Below, piece by piece: positions 2,441 through 60,555 of a DNA stretch of 64,000 nucleotides. The notes under the pieces were generated by a model. That model was not told the origin of the DNA and did not search any database. It saw only the letters and a list, made by a program, of their open reading frames with translations. Position numbers and translations under genes: made by a program. The stretch lies in NCBI RefSeq assembly GCF_030013595.1, contig NZ_CP122768.1; one strand, given 5' to 3'. Source of the stretch: Escherichia coli. Lineage in GTDB: Bacteria; Pseudomonadota; Gammaproteobacteria; Enterobacterales; Enterobacteriaceae. Within the stretch, counting starts at the first letter, position 1; each line of letters opens with the position of its first letter.

Positions 2441-2911
2441 TTAAAAACGCGCTAGATAAGAAAATTTAAGGCTAAGTGTCCCAACGATACCCCCATCACT
2501 AGAATCATCGTCATAATCGGTATTAGAAGCTACTGGAGTGATATCTGAAATTGAGAAGCCCAAATCTTTAAAACGTGGGTTATCCGGCTGAATCTGGATT
2601 ATCTGGCAAATACCCTCATGAATTTTGGTTTCATGAATCTGAGAATACAATTGCATTTCGATAACGCATTCAGCTTGCATTGCATTACCGCCACGGACCC
2701 TATTGTAAGTCTCATTCATTCCGGTGATCCAACAAACCACGTCATCACTAAAGCCTTGCTGAGTTTGTTCTACGTTTAAAGCCAGACCTAAATCTTGTTC
2801 GATAATATCCTGCAAGGCGCGTTTGATTTTCAGTCTAGGCATATTATTAACGGTAGCGAGCATGTGTACCCCCTGCCAGAGTGATAAAGCAATCAGTTGT
2901 ATTGTCACCAT
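2441..2911 (-). CDS. Hypothetical virion morphogenesis/neck protein (156 aa as tracked; more likely ~140 aa from ATG at 2863)
   Basis: ORF track; internal ATG at 2861-2863 has a GGGGG SD, first ATG has none; sits in the head-tail module. Confidence 0.4.
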   Translation of the reverse strand: MVTIQLIALSLWQGVHMLATVNNMPRLKIKRALQDIIEQDLGLALNVEQTQQGFSDDVVCWITGMNETYNRVRGGNAMQAECVIEMQLYSQIHETKIHEGICQIIQIQPDNPRFKDLGFSISDITPVASNTDYDDDSSDGGIVGTLSLKFSYLARF

Positions 2912-5338: not shown

Positions 5339-6850
5339 TTAGGGATCGGCTGGGGAATTTTTTTCTTCACCCTCGCCATCAACGATAATATTTAGTGCGC
5401 TCTTTTCGGCTTGAATCTCTGAGAATACTTTTTCAGGATCATCACCACGTTCAAGAATAACGGCAGTACGTGATTTAAGTCCTTTATCAATTAAAGCAAT
5501 CTCGGCGCTTACGTCTTTAAATGGATCGACGGATTCAAAACGAGGACGAATAATAGTAGTGTTGTCGATAATATGCGGAATTGCAGTAATACGAATCGGA
5601 ACAATACCACGCGCGGAATAATGGCGTAGATATGCTTCGAAAATTGGCAATACCACTGTTTCAATCAATTTGTTTTGCAGTGCTTTAACTCGTGTGCGCT
5701 GGGTTAATTCACCGAAACGTGCGGCTGAGTAGTTGATCTGGCTAGTATCACCAGTCAAGCCCTGTTTAAACACGCCTAAGCCCATTGATACGCTAGTAAA
5801 CATCGCATCATTGAAGCTGTTAAAGTCATCACCGCTTTGCGTCGCCTGGATGCTCTTGATCGTTGCCCCTTCCGGCAATTCCTGAATAGTACCCGGTGCA
5901 AAATCCTGTACTACTTCCGGCGCTTGATATTGTTCATCCTCTTCACCAGTATCAAAATCGTCACCAGAATCTTTCGGACGTTCGATAAAGCCCATAGAAC
6001 TAGCCGCAATACGTTTCTGGACGATCGCAGTTTCGCGGAATGCGTCTTGATGTGCGATATCCTTAATCACTGGCAGGAAATCAGTCACACCACGCAGGGA
6101 TTCAGACGCAAGTGGTTGATAATAATGGAATACTTGCGAAGCATCGACGCGATAGTTATCACCTGTGTAAGTCTGAGTCAGTAGGTTGATTTTACGAAAC
6201 CAATATGCAACAGGGCGCATTGTTTCTACGTCATACTCGATCCCCTGATAGATAGCACGTTCTTTGCTTATTTCACGGTTTAGCGACCAGTCGCACTTAT
6301 CAGCAGACAGGATGGAAACATTTAACTCATTGTTTTCTTTGGTTAAAACGATGAAGCACTCACCACCCATAACGCGCTCACGTTCAGCCATTACCAGCAG
6401 TTCACGGAAGTTAAAGCGACCGTTACGAGAGAAGCGTTTAGCGTTCTGCGCCCACTTCCAGAAAGCATTCTCGATCTGCTTATTCAGTGCGCTATCAAGT
6501 TTGCCATTTGATTTAACGATTGACGGCTTCGGATCTAGGCCAGTACCTACCACCATATCGGTGATGTATTGCGTGTAGCGACTGCCAACGGAAGTGTTTA
6601 AGGCCAGAGTACGACCCTGATCATAAAGGCGCTCACCGTTCGATTTGAGAGCCTTATTGAAGGTTCCTGTAATGGTGTCTTGTTGAAGTGATCCATCAAT
6701 ACGATCACCAACCAGTCCTAAACTACGAGTCGCCAGAGATTTCTGGTATCTTTCTATAGATTTGTCGATGAAAATTTTTGGTTGTTGCTGGCGGTGATTA
6801 GTTTTAACTGGAGTTTCTACCGCCTTTTTGCGTCGAAAAAGATTAAACAT
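5339..6850 (-). CDS. Portal protein, 503 aa (family not determined)
   Basis: ORF track; size and position between terminase and protease-capsid gene; acidic C-terminus; AAGGGG SD. Confidence 0.6.
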   Translation of the reverse strand: MFNLFRRKKAVETPVKTNHRQQQPKIFIDKSIERYQKSLATRSLGLVGDRIDGSLQQDTITGTFNKALKSNGERLYDQGRTLALNTSVGSRYTQYITDMVVGTGLDPKPSIVKSNGKLDSALNKQIENAFWKWAQNAKRFSRNGRFNFRELLVMAERERVMGGECFIVLTKENNELNVSILSADKCDWSLNREISKERAIYQGIEYDVETMRPVAYWFRKINLLTQTYTGDNYRVDASQVFHYYQPLASESLRGVTDFLPVIKDIAHQDAFRETAIVQKRIAASSMGFIERPKDSGDDFDTGEEDEQYQAPEVVQDFAPGTIQELPEGATIKSIQATQSGDDFNSFNDAMFTSVSMGLGVFKQGLTGDTSQINYSAARFGELTQRTRVKALQNKLIETVVLPIFEAYLRHYSARGIVPIRITAIPHIIDNTTIIRPRFESVDPFKDVSAEIALIDKGLKSRTAVILERGDDPEKVFSEIQAEKSALNIIVDGEGEEKNSPADP

Positions 6851-7427: not shown

Positions 7428-9332
7428 TTAGAACGATGTTACCCAGCTACGGCCTCTATTTGGGCGTCTGACGATGTTTTGACGTTGTGGTCGTGTGATT
7501 GGCTTAGTTTCTTCGATTTGCTCGTCAGATTGCGATTTAGGAGCTTCTACAGGTTCTTCTGGTTCACGGTTCAAACTATCTTTGATGGCTTCGAGTTTTT
7601 CCCATGACATTTTATTGAGTACATGACGAGAAGCAGCATAGGAATAAGCCAGGCAGTCCAACGCTTCGTTTCGTGTTTGTCCAACTTTTACCCAACGTGT
7701 GGTATTACCCTGCCGTTTCAACTGTTCAGAAAGCAATTGCTCGCAATAGTCATCAGGAACGTCACCAATCTGGAAGACAGTGTGAGGATCGCCATCTCTC
7801 AAGTTCCGGTTAATCATTTCACGGATCATCGTTTTAAGGTTGTTTACGCCCAGAATTTTAAGGGTAAAACCACCCGTTCTTGTGTCTTTTACCGGAAGGA
7901 TTGGTGCATCAACATTGCTTGCGCCTTTAATGGCGGTTAGATTTTGCCACCGACTACAGAATCGATAGATCACGTTTGTAGCTCGTCCGTTCGATGAGTC
8001 CACGAAAGCAGATAACATCGGGATTCGTTCACCGGATCGGGTATAGAATTTAGCTTTCAGGAAGTTGTAAAGCTGGTTATATGCTGGTGATTCGTGGCGT
8101 TCGCAGTTCACATCATAGAATGATCGGTGATCAACTACGCATAGCCCTTTACGAGAAATACCCAGCAAGGTAGATTCCAGACGGTCTTTTTGCTGGTCAA
8201 CTCCACCTACCAGAGCCAGTACATCATCAGGAATATTGTCTAGGCTAATATCAGTTTTCAGCGTTTCTAATTCGTCGGCTGTGCGGTCTTCGTTAAGATC
8301 ATCGAAGGTTTCACCGAGGACTGTATTGTAGAACGTTGCCAGGGACATATTCGCGTAGCTATCAGCAAAGTCCACCACACACGCACGGATAGAACTAAAC
8401 GGAGACATAAGGCGGTTAGCATGAAAACCGATTACTTCCGCGTTTGGTTCGGTGGCGACCCATTCTCCCTGTCCAACAGCACGTAGGCGATCACCCTCGG
8501 TCCAATCGGTTTCACATTCAGGGCAACGGTAAACGGCTGTATCTGGGTTGGGTAATGATTTACCGTTAATCGTATGCCAATCGAAATGTACGTTACTCCA
8601 TTCCATTACGTGCTTGTGTCCGCAATGCTGGCAAACGACATGATATTTTCTCTTATCCGAGAGTTCCCATTGTTGGTTAATCGCCCCATCACGAGCGGTT
8701 GGAGTGGAAGCAATTACGATCCTTGCATCTTCCCCGAAAGTGGTTGCGCGTTGTTCCGCTAGTTGGATCGGGTTCCCTTCGTCTGACTCATCAGCCGCAT
8801 CAACTTCATCAAGAATAATCAAAGGGAGTGTTTTACCGCGAAGATGTGACGGACTATTCAACGACATGAAATACATAAACGATCCGTTACGAAGCTGAAT
8901 AATCGATGAGTTGTTAACGGCATTGCGATCTGATTTGTCGGTGATCATCGCCTTTAATTCTGGTGTTGCCTCTAATACTGGCTTCACCTTACCAGCGATC
9001 CAAGAATTTAGTTCTCTAACGTTACTTTGCAACACCCCAATATTAGTAGGGTTACTCGCGATCCGATGGAAGATAATTCCGTTAAGAATCATGGTCTTAC
9101 CCAACTGTGCCGAACATTTAAACACAATTTTTCTACGGTCTTCGGTGATCGCGTCCATCATTCCACGTTGGAAGGGATGCAATTTAATTAGCGATCCGGC
9201 TTTAACACCATCGGTTGCAACTACATTAGCCTCTACCCATTCGCTAGGTTTCATCGTTTTAGGTGGGCGAATTGCCGCAGAGATATTTTTAAGAATCTTT
9301 TTTAATTTTGCCTTGTTCGAAATCAGTTTCAT
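7428..9332 (-). CDS. Terminase large subunit, lambda GpA family, 634 aa
   Basis: ORF track; recalled lambda gpA similarity: ..HPFQRGMMDAI.. near N-terminus, Walker-A-like KCSAQLGKT, C-terminal RNEALDCLAYSYAA matching gpA RNEALDCFVYALAA. Confidence 0.85.
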   Translation of the reverse strand: MKLISNKAKLKKILKNISAAIRPPKTMKPSEWVEANVVATDGVKAGSLIKLHPFQRGMMDAITEDRRKIVFKCSAQLGKTMILNGIIFHRIASNPTNIGVLQSNVRELNSWIAGKVKPVLEATPELKAMITDKSDRNAVNNSSIIQLRNGSFMYFMSLNSPSHLRGKTLPLIILDEVDAADESDEGNPIQLAEQRATTFGEDARIVIASTPTARDGAINQQWELSDKRKYHVVCQHCGHKHVMEWSNVHFDWHTINGKSLPNPDTAVYRCPECETDWTEGDRLRAVGQGEWVATEPNAEVIGFHANRLMSPFSSIRACVVDFADSYANMSLATFYNTVLGETFDDLNEDRTADELETLKTDISLDNIPDDVLALVGGVDQQKDRLESTLLGISRKGLCVVDHRSFYDVNCERHESPAYNQLYNFLKAKFYTRSGERIPMLSAFVDSSNGRATNVIYRFCSRWQNLTAIKGASNVDAPILPVKDTRTGGFTLKILGVNNLKTMIREMINRNLRDGDPHTVFQIGDVPDDYCEQLLSEQLKRQGNTTRWVKVGQTRNEALDCLAYSYAASRHVLNKMSWEKLEAIKDSLNREPEEPVEAPKSQSDEQIEETKPITRPQRQNIVRRPNRGRSWVTSF

Positions 9333-10523: not shown

Positions 10524-11363
10524 TTAGATACCAAAGACAGCAAGTGATCCGGCGTTCTTACGAATCAATGCGGCGGTATTATTAACGATTGCACGAGCAT
10601 TGTTAGGCTGCGGTAATTTCAAAGTTGCTATCGTCTCTTCCTCAATCAAGCCCAATTCAACCAGCACTGGTAAACAGTCAGTTGTGAACTCAAGCTGACC
10701 ATGTGCTGATTGTCGGGCATACATGTAAGCAGGAGGAAGAACATCATAGCCACAAGGCTTACCAGAAGCATCCAGACGGCGCTCAATGTGTTTAGCCTCA
10801 CACAATCCCTTAAGAATACGTTGTACCTTCGTAGAGCCTCGTTTTTCGCCCAATAAGCGGGTTAAGCTGTGCCCGTCAATGGCACGGCGAACATGAAGAT
10901 CAATTAATTGTTCTTTTTCTTCCGCTAAAGTCAGAGCCTTACGAATCCAATCAACTTCGGTCATCTTGCTTGCGTCTGGGAAAGCGTTATTCTTTAATTC
11001 TTCATTTTCTTTCTTCAAACGCTGCCATTCATCAACCAGCATTGCGGTATAAACCGGATCGGTCTGTGCGATAACAATGTAGCTATCACGTTCAGTCAGA
11101 AGATAAACTTCAATTGGTTTGCCTTTACGGCCTAAACGGTCAGTTTTTGACCAAAACGCCACTGGCGGTTTGGTTACAATTTGAGCTTCAACCAGACGAT
11201 CAACCGTTCTCATAATATCGGTGTGACGGTTTTCACGCCCCATTAGTTCAGCAATACGCCAGGTAGAAATTGATAATTCTTTCTCTACAGAGTCATTTGC
11301 AGCAGTCAGGTCAACAGAAGAAGCAGTTTTAACAGCAGTATTCATAGTAGTAACAGTATTCAT
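10524..11363 (-). CDS. Rha-family phage regulatory protein (antirepressor-like), 279 aa
   Basis: ORF track; N-terminal ..STWRIAELMGRENRHTDIMRTVDRL.. resembles the Rha-domain pattern (recalled); C-terminal domain unrecognised. Confidence 0.5.
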   Translation of the reverse strand: MNTVTTMNTAVKTASSVDLTAANDSVEKELSISTWRIAELMGRENRHTDIMRTVDRLVEAQIVTKPPVAFWSKTDRLGRKGKPIEVYLLTERDSYIVIAQTDPVYTAMLVDEWQRLKKENEELKNNAFPDASKMTEVDWIRKALTLAEEKEQLIDLHVRRAIDGHSLTRLLGEKRGSTKVQRILKGLCEAKHIERRLDASGKPCGYDVLPPAYMYARQSAHGQLEFTTDCLPVLVELGLIEEETIATLKLPQPNNARAIVNNTAALIRKNAGSLAVFGI

Positions 11364-11451: not shown

Positions 11452-11784
11452 TTACCAATCGATTTCTACTTGGTCTTCTTCATAATAAGGAATCGCATAT
11501 TCATAACGCCAATTTTCGATGATTTCACGTTCTTCATTAGTAAGAAGGTGATTGTTAACTGGAGTCGCATTGTGATTACCAGCTTCGAATTGCTCGCGAA
11601 CTTCCAGCATTGCATGAATACCAGTTAAGGACATCAGATCAAACGGAACATGCATACTACGGGAGATTGTTTCACGGGATACGCCCCAATCATTTTCTAC
11701 ATGGCTAGGGGTTACAGAAACGGTTTTGCCGGAGATTTTAACAGTCCAGTCATACAGGGATTTAGTGATGGTAAATTCTTTCAT
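11452..11784 (-). CDS. Hypothetical protein, 110 aa
   Basis: ORF track; directly downstream of a consensus promoter. Confidence 0.4.
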   Translation of the reverse strand: MKEFTITKSLYDWTVKISGKTVSVTPSHVENDWGVSRETISRSMHVPFDLMSLTGIHAMLEVREQFEAGNHNATPVNNHLLTNEEREIIENWRYEYAIPYYEEDQVEIDW

Positions 11785-11825: not shown

Positions 11826-11883
11826 TTGTCAAGTGCGATAATCATAAAAAAGTTTGAAGATATTGTCAAATACCACTTGACAA
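11826..11883 (-). promoter_or_regulatory. Consensus sigma70 promoter (TTGACA-17-TATGAT, minus strand) bracketed by a 10-bp inverted repeat TTGTCAAGTG / CACTTGACAA
   Basis: -35 at plus 11864-11869, -10 at plus 11841-11846; inverted-repeat arms at 11826-11835 and 11874-11883. Confidence 0.5.
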
Positions 11884-11905: not shown

Positions 11906-12094
11906 TTACAGCATATCTAAGCCTTCATCGTAACCGTAGAAGCCATTCTGAGAAGAGAAGCAGATTGGTGCGTAGTCGTCGTCATCTTCGTCTTGTTCAT
12001 CTTGTTCTGGGGCTTCCTGAGCGGTTTCTTTGCCGTAGTTAAACATGGCTTCATCCAGTTCATAGTGGAAATCCTCTAAAAGAAAGTGAATCAA
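11906..12094 (-). CDS. Small strongly acidic protein (62 aa from TTG; 46 aa from internal ATG); frame uncertain
   Basis: ORF track (TTG start); acidic run EAPEQDEQDEDDDDY; an alternative overlapping frame has the better SD. Confidence 0.25.
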   Translation of the reverse strand: MIHFLLEDFHYELDEAMFNYGKETAQEAPEQDEQDEDDDDYAPICFSSQNGFYGYDEGLDML

Positions 12095-12700
12095 TCTAAT
12101 ATTATTTATAAAGAGAAAATTCTTGTTATTATGAAAGGAGTGATCTGGTAGAGTCCAAAACTGGTCTGTACTTGAAAGGTGATTGGATTCAGTCGGGCAA
12201 AGCCCTCCTTCATGTTTTGATTAAATCATCATCAAAACGAAGAAGTATCTTTAGAATATAAGATCTTTCTTTTGGAGAAATAATAATCAGGAAGCAATTT
12301 GGCAACCGAAGGTTGCAATCCCGAAGGGATAACCAATACCTTTCTAGAAAGTGATTGTTACTCACTTCGTTCGTTTACTAGAATCAGTTATCATCTGGTA
12401 TTAAATCCCTTTCTAAGAAAATCCTTTCAAAAGTGATTCTCGATGCCACGCAGTGGCGTCGCAGACGTTTGGGAGTGAGCGAAGCGAGCGAGCAAACTAG
12501 TTAATTCCTTCTAAGACCATCTAGTATCATCTAGTTTAAATTAGTTGTTACTAGAAGCAATTGGTTGGCGCTTCGCGCAGTCGGGCTAAAGCCCTCCTAA
12601 TTATCTTTTTGGTTATTTGTTGTTTTTAGTTTTACACATGAGCGTAGCGAATGTGTTATATAATATCTATGCACGCCCAATCCCCCGCTTTTTCCCCTCA
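12095..12700. other. ~600 bp hairpin-dense non-coding region (candidate structured RNA or DNA-level origin/packaging signals)
   Basis: No ORF; many short-loop hairpins (GCAACC-GAA-GGTTGC, ATCCC-GAA-GGGAT, GCCAC-GCA-GTGGC, GCGC-TTC-GCGC); CTAG-rich; ~20-bp direct repeats CAGTCGGGC(T)AAAGCCCTCCT at ~12190-12209 and ~12578-12598. Confidence 0.5.
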
Positions 12701-12743
12701 CTAAGTTAATGTTTTATAAAGAGTTTTTCTCACCAATCCTTTT

Positions 12744-12931
12744 CGGGGGCAAATTTCAGGGGCAAAAATTAGATTTTCAGGGGCAAAAATAGTGGGTTTC
12801 AGGGGCAAAAATGAGGGGCAAAATCACTGTTTCCCAGAATTTCAGGGGCAAAAATAGTGGGTTTCAGGGGCAAAAATGGGATGTGGAATCTAGGGGATTT
12901 TGGTTCAGGGGCAAAATTCAGGGGCAATTTT
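12744..12931 (+). repeat. Iteron array: 9 copies of (TTCA)GGGGCAAAAAT, including an exact 38-bp duplication
   Basis: Read directly; copies at ~12746, 12759, 12780, 12802, 12815, 12845, 12867, 12908, 12921; 38-mer TTCAGGGGCAAAAATAGTGGGTTTCAGGGGCAAAAATG at 12777 and 12841. Confidence 0.85.
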
Positions 12932-12968
12932 CATAGTGTAGGGCTAGTGTAGGTTTGAAAATCCTTTG

Positions 12969-13025
12969 TTGACACTGTGTAGGATCGGTGGTATACTTGA
13001 AAATTCGAGATAAATATGTTATAAT
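12969..13025 (+). promoter_or_regulatory. Tandem near-consensus sigma70 promoters next to the iterons
   Basis: P1 TTGACA (12969-12974), 17 bp, TATACT (12992-12997); P2 TTGAAA (12997-13002), 17 bp, TGtTATAAT (13017-13025). Confidence 0.55.
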
Positions 13026-15345: not shown

Positions 15346-15903
15346 TTAAGACACATCAAATTCATCGTCTTCTTCTGGTTCTTGTTCTTCCGGTTCATCC
15401 ATTAATGGTAATTCTTCTTCCTCGTCTTCTCCCAAATCTGCATTTTCGAACAAGTCCCCTACTTCATTTAAACGACGCTCGATGATCTCCCTTAGCTTAT
15501 TCTTTAATGTTTTCTGGTCATTGGCAGATTCGAGAATTTCTAGGGCATCGATCGTACAAATCTGCAAAATAGTCTGCTTCACTTTCCCGCAATATTCCGC
15601 TAGTTGCTGTTCTACATAACCGACAGGAATCAGGAGGTTCATTTTTTCCTGATTCTCTCGTTCGGCTGCATCTGCCATTGCTCTTTCTCTGCGGAGACGT
15701 TCTTGATCAATCGCTTCTTTGATTGAAGTTTGTTTAAGTGGGTTAATTACGTTCTTTAGCACCCAATCGCAACCTTCCTTTGCCGGAACACGCCTCTTAT
15801 TGGTATTGTAAGGTAGTCCCCTTTCTAACCATCGCTTACCGCCACCATTCAATGTATAGCCATATAAACGGGAAATTTCTGTAAGGGTTAATTCTTCTTT
15901 CAT
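15346..15903 (-). CDS. Nu1-like small terminase subunit candidate (winged-HTH protein with acidic C-terminus), 185 aa
   Basis: ORF track; strong GGAGGA SD; GGGK and W.ERGLP motifs loosely like lambda Nu1 (recalled); first gene inside the element boundary. Confidence 0.4.
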   Translation of the reverse strand: MKEELTLTEISRLYGYTLNGGGKRWLERGLPYNTNKRRVPAKEGCDWVLKNVINPLKQTSIKEAIDQERLRRERAMADAAERENQEKMNLLIPVGYVEQQLAEYCGKVKQTILQICTIDALEILESANDQKTLKNKLREIIERRLNEVGDLFENADLGEDEEEELPLMDEPEEQEPEEDDEFDVS

Positions 15904-32015: not shown

Positions 32016-32355
32016 TACCGTTGTCTCTCGTCCAGGTTTACTCCTGATAGAAAGTCATCGGCACTTGACGGTAATTACTTATGACCAAAAACCTCTTTGC
32101 GTCACATTTTTACAACAATTATGGCAGAGAAAATTAATGCTATTGGAATGAAGAGAGTAACGAATGGCTAAACTGGCTAACCCGAATGACGAAAAATTCT
32201 GGAAAACAGCACGCAATTTCGTCAGGTGATTATTTTCGTCCCTAAGGAAACCACATAGGATGCTCACGGGTGCCTGAGACTTTCTGTTTTCAGGCTAACC
32301 GGGAATCAGAAAGACGAAGGCCCCGACCGATATTTCTATCAACCGAGGCCAACGA

Positions 32356-32563
<208 letters not shown>

Positions 32564-32787: not shown

Positions 32788-33042
32788 GATGTTTTCATAT
32801 AACCTCCATGGTTTATCGAATCTTATGTTCGATTTGAACGTTATACGCTGGTTTATTTTGATACCGTTGATGAGATCAAAGATCGGGTGAATTGATTAAA
32901 GATAAGCCAGATGGACGTATGGATAAGGATTATGGTTTTATTTGTCATACAAATAAATATAATAGGCGCTTCCGATGTAGACCCGTATTCTTCGCCTGTA
33001 CCACGGGTCGGTTTTAGTACAGGCGTTTTCTTTAAATATCCT

Positions 33043-49353: not shown

Positions 49354-50062
49354 AGAATAAATATCCTCCGGCATAGCCGGAGGTTTTTCAAATGCGCCTG
49401 TAAGGCTCTGTTACCAGCCGCGCCCTAACAGGCGCATACGATCTGACATTTGCATTCAACTTCGTTACTTACGGCCCGTAAACGGGCTGCCCGGATATGG
49501 AATCGATAACTGCTCCCCCATTTTATCCTCTTCAAGCTGGTGCTTTATGTAGTCCTGTATCTTCGCCGTGTTCTTACCCACCGTATCGACATAGTACCCT
49601 CGGCACCAGAACTCCCTGTTTCTGTATTTGAATTTCAAATCCCCAAACTGCTCGTAAAGCATCAGACTGCTTTTCCCTTTCAGATATCCCATAAAGCCGG
49701 ATACGCTCATTTTGGGTGGGATTTCCACAAGCATATGGATATGATCTGCGCAGCACTCTGCTTCCAGAATCCGTACGCTTTTCCACTCACACAGCTTTCT
49801 CAAAATACTGCCTATCGCCCTACGCTTCTCTCCGTAAAACGCCAGTCTTCGGTATTTCGGCGCAAAAACTATGTGATATTTACAGTTCCAGCGGGTGTGC
49901 GCTAAGCTCTTTTCGTCCCCCATTGGGACCCCCTTTTGATTTCTTGTTTGACACTTGCAGTTGCCAGACCGCAAGGTGTTTTAACAAATCAAAAGGGGTT
50001 TTAATAACTGGCTCAAAGCTGAAAGCTTTCCGGAACCCCCAGCCTAGCTGGGGGTTTTCTGT
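49354..50062 (-). mobile_element. IS200 (IS200/IS605 family), ~709 bp; boundaries approximate
   Basis: Contains tnpA; LE perfect hairpin AACCCCCAGC-CTA-GCTGGGGGTT at 50034-50056; RE hairpin CCTCCGGCATAGCCGGAGG at ~49365-49383. Confidence 0.8.
49465..49923 (-). CDS. tnpA: IS200 transposase TnpA (Y1/HUH), 152 aa
   Basis: MGDEKSLAHTRWNCKYHIVFAPKYRR.. with HxH motif (ADHIHMLVEIPP); inside tracked ORF 49465..49974. Confidence 0.85.
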   Translation of the reverse strand: MGDEKSLAHTRWNCKYHIVFAPKYRRLAFYGEKRRAIGSILRKLCEWKSVRILEAECCADHIHMLVEIPPKMSVSGFMGYLKGKSSLMLYEQFGDLKFKYRNREFWCRGYYVDTVGKNTAKIQDYIKHQLEEDKMGEQLSIPYPGSPFTGRK

Positions 50063-60195: not shown

Positions 60196-60223
60196 ATGCT
60201 CTGGATAAGAATTATCCAATTCT

Positions 60224-60328
60224 AAAAAAAAGCCCGAACGACTGTTCGGGCTTGTCTCATTATTTGTTGGATAAACAGTAACAAGGGTCCAACAGAAAAT
60301 AATCTTTGTGACAATAAAGGCATATAAC
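60224..60328 (-). ncRNA. micC: MicC small RNA
   Basis: Minus-sense GTTATATGCCTTTATTGTCACA.. 5' end and hairpin plus U-tract terminator; between ydbK and ompN as in K-12. Confidence 0.7.
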
Positions 60329-60555
60329 CCGCGAAGAATAACGTATAGCAAATTAAAAGTATAATTTTTATTTTGTATGTATTATCTTCGATACATTCAC
60401 CAGACTTATTATCATTTCAGAAGAATTATTTGATTAAGGTTTTACTTAAGGCGTAACAAATGATATTTATCGGCTAACTGAACTTCTCCTTTAGGATGTT
60501 TTCACTCCCCGAAATGGGGATAAAAGGCAAATAAAATAACTAAAGGATTTATTCA

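Follow-up and report, generated by a model that had tools for sequence, protein, structure and literature searches.

In single-stranded DNA-binding proteins such as Escherichia coli SSB (which ends in ...DDDIPF), T7 gp2.5, and T4 gp32, the acidic C-terminal tail binds basic surfaces of partner proteins. Ocr (T7 gp0.3) and ArdA, which are DNA-mimic anti-restriction proteins, fold into dimers that imitate bent B-DNA, with carboxylates on their surface taking the place of the backbone phosphates (PMC3439906, PMC2806950, PMC2731889). A short, strongly acidic open reading frame (ORF) lying upstream of a Rha-type regulator had been singled out in an earlier note on the DNA analyzed here as a possible mimic of the Ocr/ArdA kind. 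Like Ocr and ArdA, the ORF is dense in Asp and Glu, strongly negative in net charge, and borne by a mobile element. Unlike these folded dimers, however, its acidic segment corresponds to a predicted disordered tail on an unrelated α/β domain, and we found neither a sequence or profile match to them nor a predicted folded, DNA-shaped body. With SSB-type tails, the parent protein shares an acidic run, here predicted to be disordered, that leads into conserved aromatic or hydrophobic residues, an analogy that serves for mechanism only: the parent N-terminal domain is an α/β sandwich rather than an OB fold, its D-D-D-Y-x-P-I-x-F stretch is internal, and the protein ends in ...YDEGLDML. Comparison with related loci indicates that the ORF is very probably the 3′ remnant of a prophage gene encoding 147–158 aa, which was cut and frameshifted by a 310-bp deletion.

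Prophage Context

The window (the whole 64,000-nt stretch of DNA that was analyzed) is part of an enterobacterial chromosome, and its first ∼16,800 nt are the right half of a prophage. Besides the head-gene and terminase markers listed in Table 1, this half carries a protease-capsid fusion and a HicB-like gene. The element in E. coli ES2 (loci L003/L018; NZ_CM184352.1, 2864833-2900840) is ∼36 kb long, splits ycdX, adjoins ghrA, and encodes a large serine recombinase and siphovirus-type tail genes; no CI-type repressor or replication initiator was recognizable among its annotated genes. A related locus was found in 57 of 5,426 complete E. coli genomes. Neither megablast with the region nor tblastn with the 62-aa ORF and its 154-aa homologue returned a match in a set of 50,697 phage records, and the best TerL match among sequenced phages was 44% identical. 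The prophage lineage is, thus, one with no close sequenced phage relative, and a literature search found no description of a prophage at ycdX. In the same window, ARAGORN called a 91-nt tRNA-Gln(ttg) at 2586-2676 (+), antisense within a 156-aa ORF at 2441-2911 (−); the call is probably a false positive, being unusually long and having no Rfam tRNA match at the gathering threshold. Small RNAs that Rfam recognized in the chromosomal part are included in Table 1.

Table 1. Positions of the acidic ORF, its start signals, and other features of the window
Feature	Position	Strand	Remarks
Portal gene	5339-6850	−	
Large terminase	7428-9332	−	lambda-gpA type
Rha/Ant-like regulator	10524-11363	−	279 aa
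110-aa gene	11452-11784	−	next gene downstream of the acidic ORF
Operator-like TTGACAA half-sites	11826-11883		inverted pair 11863-11869/11877-11883 over the −35; third copy 11826-11832 downstream of the −10
Near-consensus sigma-70 promoter	11841-11869	−	TTGACA-17-TATGAT; between the acidic ORF stop and the 110-aa/Rha genes
Acidic ORF	11906-12094	−	62 aa from TTG 12094; stop codon 11906-11908
46-aa form of the acidic ORF	11906-12046	−	begins at ATG 12046, the former internal Met110 (MFNYGK...)
Basic ORF	11917-12063	−	48 aa, pI 11.3; native start read out of frame; created by the deletion
Deletion junction	12058-12065	−	sole remaining copy of the 8-bp direct repeat CTATGAAC
Native ribosome-binding site and start codon	12061-12077	−	AGAGGA 12072-12077; ATG 12063-12061; reads the +1 frame after the deletion
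Candidate promoter of the acidic-tail gene	12101-12129	−	ATAACA-17-AATAAT, 9/12 matches; conserved TATAAATAATA box
TerS-like gene	15346-15903	−	
sok	32268-32419	+	Rfam
RydC	32969-33032	+	Rfam
STnc490	49933-50056	−	Rfam
MicC	60216-60331	−	Rfam

The Acidic ORF and Its Start Signals

The description of the ORF as strongly acidic and 46–62 aa long was borne out. Its translation contains EAPEQDEQDEDDDDY, and the 46-aa form has 14 Asp and Glu against a single Lys or Arg, so that its net charge is −13 and its pI 4.05. The six frames of the window hold 557 segments that run from stop to stop and span 46 aa or more; among all 15-residue stretches in these segments, the acidic run ranked second for acidity. 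The most acidic 15-residue stretch of the window, DEPEEQEPEEDDEFD at 15355-15399 (−), is the C-terminus of the TerS-like protein.

The start signals were likewise as had been described, with a TTG start, weak Shine–Dalgarno (SD) support, and a better SD in an overlapping frame. Predicted pairing with the 3′ end of 16S rRNA gave anti-SD duplex energies of +0.5 kcal/mol for TTG 12094, −3.1 kcal/mol for ATG 12046 (a weak SD), and −5.8 kcal/mol for ATG 12063, at which the overlapping basic ORF begins.

The Acidic Frame in a Conserved Prophage Family

At the same position, E. coli ES2 carries a 154-aa gene (WP_134744673.1) whose C-terminus is the window’s acidic sequence. From Y-E-L to the stop, the window ORF aligned position by position with the last 52 residues of the family to which this protein belongs, and the same SD and ATG that open the family gene are present in the window. 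Homology was confined to the residues from Y-E-L onward (12064 downstream). The residues MIHFLLEDFH have no family counterpart: they come from reading the former 5′ UTR, whose chance lack of stop codons is all that keeps the acidic frame open upstream. The full-length segment was present in 34 of the 40 E. coli genomes that match the ES2 gene.

The family comprises 73 protein clusters from E. coli and Shigella, mostly of 147–158 aa, all annotated “hypothetical,” and none with a Pfam domain. When 1.84 billion representative proteins were searched exhaustively with an HMM, 11 matches came back, all of them family members or fragments, and this profile search added only three distant full-length relatives (P0074–P0076). 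These three keep the acidic run, followed by Y-x-P-V-V-F-S-S...Y-Y-G-Y-N-E-A-F-D-M-L, and their gene order shows the same synteny (gap, family gene, 107-aa gene, Rha, TerL). The host of one of them, with an identity to E. coli of only ∼74% in the ghrA–ycdX region, points to at least one other enterobacterial genus as a carrier of the family. The tail signature of the family consists of the acidic run, Y-x-P-[IV]-x-F-S-S, and a C-terminal [FY]-Y-G-Y-x-E-G-L-x-M-L.

Across the homologues, the acidic frame is kept, and stops or frameshifts are not a property of the frame itself. Among eight intact E. coli alleles, with pS of up to ∼0.5, pN/pS was 0.31 in the tail and 0.41 in the N-domain. To judge from these comparisons, the acidic frame is the authentic coding frame in the family and is under purifying selection. 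The coding frame, which the earlier note had left unresolved, can therefore be answered in two parts: the acidic frame is genuine in the family, but it does not stand in the window as a small gene in its own right, being what a 310-bp deletion left behind. That the ORF might have arisen by chance in noncoding DNA, as its shortness, its TTG start with no SD, and the many ORFs of this length in the window could suggest, is refuted by its alignment to the C-terminus of a conserved family and by purifying selection in the acidic frame, and we assign this reading practically no weight.

The window ORF holds every tail residue that is invariant in alignment A1, and it lies where a family gene should lie: within a prophage in ycdX, after a ∼1.3-kb noncoding repeat region and ahead of a 107–110-aa (or 48-aa) gene and Rha. 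The N-terminal α/β domain (residues ∼10–111) is absent from the window copy, which is a fragment of a family member and not an intact member. Lesions also occur in other members. A nonsense codon interrupts the gene at codon 116, just before the acidic tail, in O55:H7 DEC5A (L005); a deletion in 14EC017 (L017) takes the 3′ part of the gene together with the downstream promoter; and there are in-frame deletions of 20 residues in P0036 and of 8 residues in P0066/P0067. These independent lesions elsewhere imply that the family gene is dispensable in lysogens.

The family was not represented in the profile collections or among the PDB sequences that we searched. Pfam gave no family for the 62- and 46-aa ORFs even at E ≤ 10, apart from a spurious MPP6 match at E = 0.16, and its only match to the full-length homologue was DUF4835 at E = 0.034. 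Scans of PHROGs, NCBIfam, and PADLOC with the ORF, the full-length homologue, and the neighboring genes found no match for the family, and nothing significant emerged from PDB sequence searches, whether the query was the family profile or the tail by itself. A profile search with the tail only returned remnants alone, a result to be read in light of limited candidate retrieval, as full-length members were likewise unlisted. We regard the parent family as a modest lead, restricted to one uncharacterized prophage lineage that inserts in ycdX.

A 310-bp Deletion Between Direct Repeats

Nucleotide comparison showed that the window lacks the 310 bp that separate two copies of the 8-bp direct repeat CTATGAAC in intact alleles. 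There, the copies lie 310 bp apart, at −2 and +308 relative to the ATG. The first overlaps the start codon (CC-ACT-ATG-AAC), the second falls at the V-Y-E-L codons GTC-TAT-GAA-CTG, and both were found in the intact MNHK...VYELDE-type alleles L002, L005, L012, and L015. Missing from the window copy are codons 3–105 (i.e., the entire α/β domain). Since 310 equals 3 × 103 + 1, the native SD and ATG 12063 now translate the +1 frame, yielding the 48-aa basic peptide; this out-of-frame reading from the native start accounts for the puzzling alternative frame with the better SD. In the acidic frame, the only starts left after the deletion are a TTG in the old 5′ UTR, which has no SD, and the old Met110, which has a weak one. 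The lesion is, in short, a microhomology-mediated deletion between the two 8-bp direct repeats, after which the native SD and ATG load the +1 frame and the acidic frame is left poorly started.

A junction-spanning query located the two halves of the junction 310–315 bp apart in 23 of the 57 complete genomes with the locus, and in 4 of these 23, the sequence to either side of the junction matches the window at 99.2% identity. The contiguous junction was found in only two of the 57, UTAK-14 and TO6. Their 46-aa “hypothetical proteins,” as annotated by PGAP (WP_373931793.1 and WP_172901008.1, respectively), have the same junction and frame as the window, with few substitutions (97% and 96% DNA identity to the window over the 141-nt tail). 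The closest intact allele, that of 14EC029, codes for 155 aa (WP_097494208.1). It and the ES2 gene occupy the same genomic position as the window ORF, but the window copy is without codons 3–105 and out of frame with its own start. A junction-specific pattern search of IMG/VR gave 0 matches. The opposite order of events, in which a short form was ancestral and the N-domain was inserted later, is argued against by the distant full-length homologues and by the duplicated 8-bp repeat flanking the 310 bp.

The deletion also makes sense of the annotation at this locus: the 46-, 62-, and 102-aa “hypothetical proteins” recorded in several E. coli are fragments of one ∼155-aa gene. In addition, the short direct repeat over the start codon predisposes the family gene to a single, specific deletion that shifts the frame.

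The Remnant After the Deletion

The acidic ORF is most likely a nonfunctional remnant, a pseudogene that has acquired no stop codons so far. The alternative that survives best is that the 46-aa tail peptide from ATG 12046 is a functional micro-protein, which would act by tail binding or as a dominant negative without the N-domain. All the deletion-type sequences that we found (∼20 variants, called as 46-, 62-, or 102-aa ORFs and not rare in draft assemblies) keep the acidic frame free of stops, although sampling by way of called ORFs favors open frames and hides disrupted copies. The window’s exact 46-aa sequence was present on 12 contigs; among complete genomes with the locus, however, the allele occurs in just 2 of 57. 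The start codon would be Met110, which is invariant among E. coli alleles but absent in the distant homologues P0074–P0076, and its weak SD (−3.1 kcal/mol) is compounded by the strong native SD and ATG 17 nt upstream, which drive ribosomes across ATG 12046 in the other frame. The tail, as the best-conserved part of the protein and one predicted to be disordered, might act as an isolated linear motif, and the deletion alleles mostly retain its family-invariant residues.

Differences between deletion alleles are mostly synonymous (4.5 synonymous and 2.5 nonsynonymous between the window and TO6), a bias that could reflect continued translation of the peptide and selection on it. However, the tail polymorphisms EQ/EE/EH/ER, QDEDDDD/EDEEDED, YA/YT, and SSQNG/SSHGG/SSHNS are common to deletion and intact alleles and may, therefore, predate the deletion or have come by recombination. 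Because they are shared, the synonymous bias says nothing about selection after the deletion, and we rejected the comparison of deletion alleles as an uninformative measure of selection on the remnant. The upstream flank of the window is 98.3% identical to that of an intact allele compared with 94.0% and 84.7% to those of other deletion alleles. Together, the flank and the polymorphisms form a pattern that would be explained by a deletion that has recurred at the 8-bp repeat, or by recombination, better than by prolonged retention of the short form. On this evidence, we consider a functional 46-aa micro-protein unlikely.

A more specific version, which we rate as improbable, holds that the conserved tail is an autonomous linear motif that mimics a nucleic acid or the tail of a host protein and blocks a conserved host factor, with the 46-aa form translated, active, and selected. 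If this were true, the deletion allele would be a selected short form and not a pseudogene, and the repeat-mediated loss of the N-domain would be recurrent or spread by recombination.

The proposal that the ORF encodes a small Ocr/ArdA-type DNA mimic, inhibiting restriction or other DNA-binding enzymes, did not hold up. Charge is in its favor (−13 for the 46-aa form and −17 for the full 154-aa parent), as is location on a mobile element. Against it, Pfam searches as permissive as E ≤ 10 matched neither Ocr nor ArdA nor another family; PHROGs, NCBIfam, PADLOC, and the sequences in the PDB were all without a match; tblastn found nothing in the 50,697 phage records; and comparison of the full-length structural model gave no match to Ocr or ArdA. 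The acidic stretch is, moreover, predicted to be disordered and not to form a rigid, DNA-shaped body, and the gene in the window is truncated and frameshifted. We judge a DNA mimic of this type to be highly improbable and have dropped the ORF from candidate new DNA mimics; the intact tail may conceivably have a generic role as an electrostatic mimic. The acidic ORF is genuine as a sequence feature, but its explanation as a gene remnant is an ordinary one.

Scarcely credible is the reading in which the overlapping basic ORF is the real product. In its favor are an ATG start preceded by the best SD (−5.8 kcal/mol) and a frame free of stops in the window as well as in UTAK-14 and TO6. The basic ORF exists, however, only through the deletion that joined the native start to the +1 frame, and in intact alleles, the identical start opens the frame of 147–158 aa. 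Its exact sequence was not found among 15 billion proteins, its basic composition is what acidic GAx codons would give when read one base off, and selection acts on the acidic frame instead.

The Intact Protein and Its Tail

To return to the gene of which the window holds the 3′ end, AlphaFold2 with the family alignment modeled residues ∼10–111 as a β-α-β (three-layer α/β) sandwich with pLDDT of 78–91. In the model of the full-length homologue, residues 117–154, which contain the acidic run and the aromatic motifs, had pLDDT of ∼34 and no secondary structure. The intact protein is, thus, predicted to consist of a generic N-terminal α/β domain of ∼110 residues and a disordered, acidic, aromatic-rich tail of ∼40 residues. 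The 154-aa parent has a net charge of −17, and pI ranges from 4.05 to 4.41 across the forms. We compared the fold of the N-domain with P-loop kinases (APS kinase, gluconate kinase, and T4 dNMP kinase); the Walker A motif GxxxxGK[ST] that should follow the first strand is absent.

Conservation is concentrated in the tail. Of the 22 invariant columns of alignment A1, 16 lie in the last 41 residues (E120–L154), and 20 lie in the last 48; identity of the N-domain between allele types falls to ∼55–60%. A tail more conserved than the folded domain suggests a conserved binding partner. N-domain type did not covary with the type of the upstream repeat or of the downstream gene, and the genomic context, therefore, gave no clue to that partner. 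From composition, conservation, and predicted disorder, we infer with low confidence that the intact tail may be a linear interaction motif for a conserved partner from the host or the phage. This partner would offer the acidic run a basic surface, perhaps one that binds nucleic acid, and the Y-x-P-[IV]-x-F-S-S and [FY]-Y-G-Y-x-E-G-L-x-M-L motifs would give specificity.

Position Relative to the Rha Genes

The acidic ORF had been placed at the head of the Rha operon. It immediately precedes the 110-aa and Rha genes on the same strand, but a separate near-consensus promoter lies between it and them. The three TTGACAA half-sites around this promoter look like an operator for a repressor, and the promoter is a candidate for a regulated one that would belong to the Rha genes themselves. 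Terminator prediction found none between the acidic ORF and the 110-aa/Rha unit, so that read-through into the Rha genes is possible. The TATAAATAATA box of the acidic-tail gene’s own candidate promoter is kept in all relatives, including the distant loci L008 and L010.

The Noncoding Region Upstream

The region between the divergent gene sets is free of ORFs and contains ∼10 copies of TTCAGGGGCAAAA at 12742-12940. Other repeat families occupy the same place in related prophages: CCTACACTA in L013 and L016, ATCCCC in L012, and AATCCCCAAGATTCCA in L014. L012 also differs in its variant of the adjacent 313/339-aa coiled-coil (“bZIP”) gene. These repeats look like iteron-type sites, with swappable specificity, of an origin, a packaging site, or a regulator.

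Closer to the family gene, six perfect GC-rich hairpins with 3-nt loops lie within 606 bp (12095-12700), at 12195, 12302, 12318, 12445, 12457, and 12568; on the plus strand, the loops are G-N-A in four cases, AAA in one, and TTC in one. The density here is 9.9 per kb compared with 1.5 per kb in the window as a whole, and 500 shuffles gave a mean of 0.28 and a maximum of 3 vs. the six observed. The distant locus L008 keeps several of the hairpins with changed stems (e.g., GCAACC/GGTTGC to GCCCC/GGGGC and GCCAC/GTGGC to GTCC/GGAC), and hairpins that are kept while their stems change suggest a possible structural role in RNA or single-stranded DNA. Rfam scans of this upstream region gave no credible match.

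The motif CAGTCGGGC(N3-4)GCCCTCCT occurs at 12190-12211 and 12578-12600. Seen from the minus strand, the motif is AGGAGGGC-loop-GCCCGACTG, with an SD-like AGGAGG as part of the hairpin, and the gene-proximal copy is preceded by ATGAAGGAGG, which is invariant in nine of nine aligned loci. At 12969-13025 (+), tandem near-consensus sigma-70 promoters (TTGACA-17-TATACT and TTGAAA-17-TATAAT) point toward the 91-aa and 313-aa genes; each has 11 of 12 matches, and both have the TG of an extended −10.
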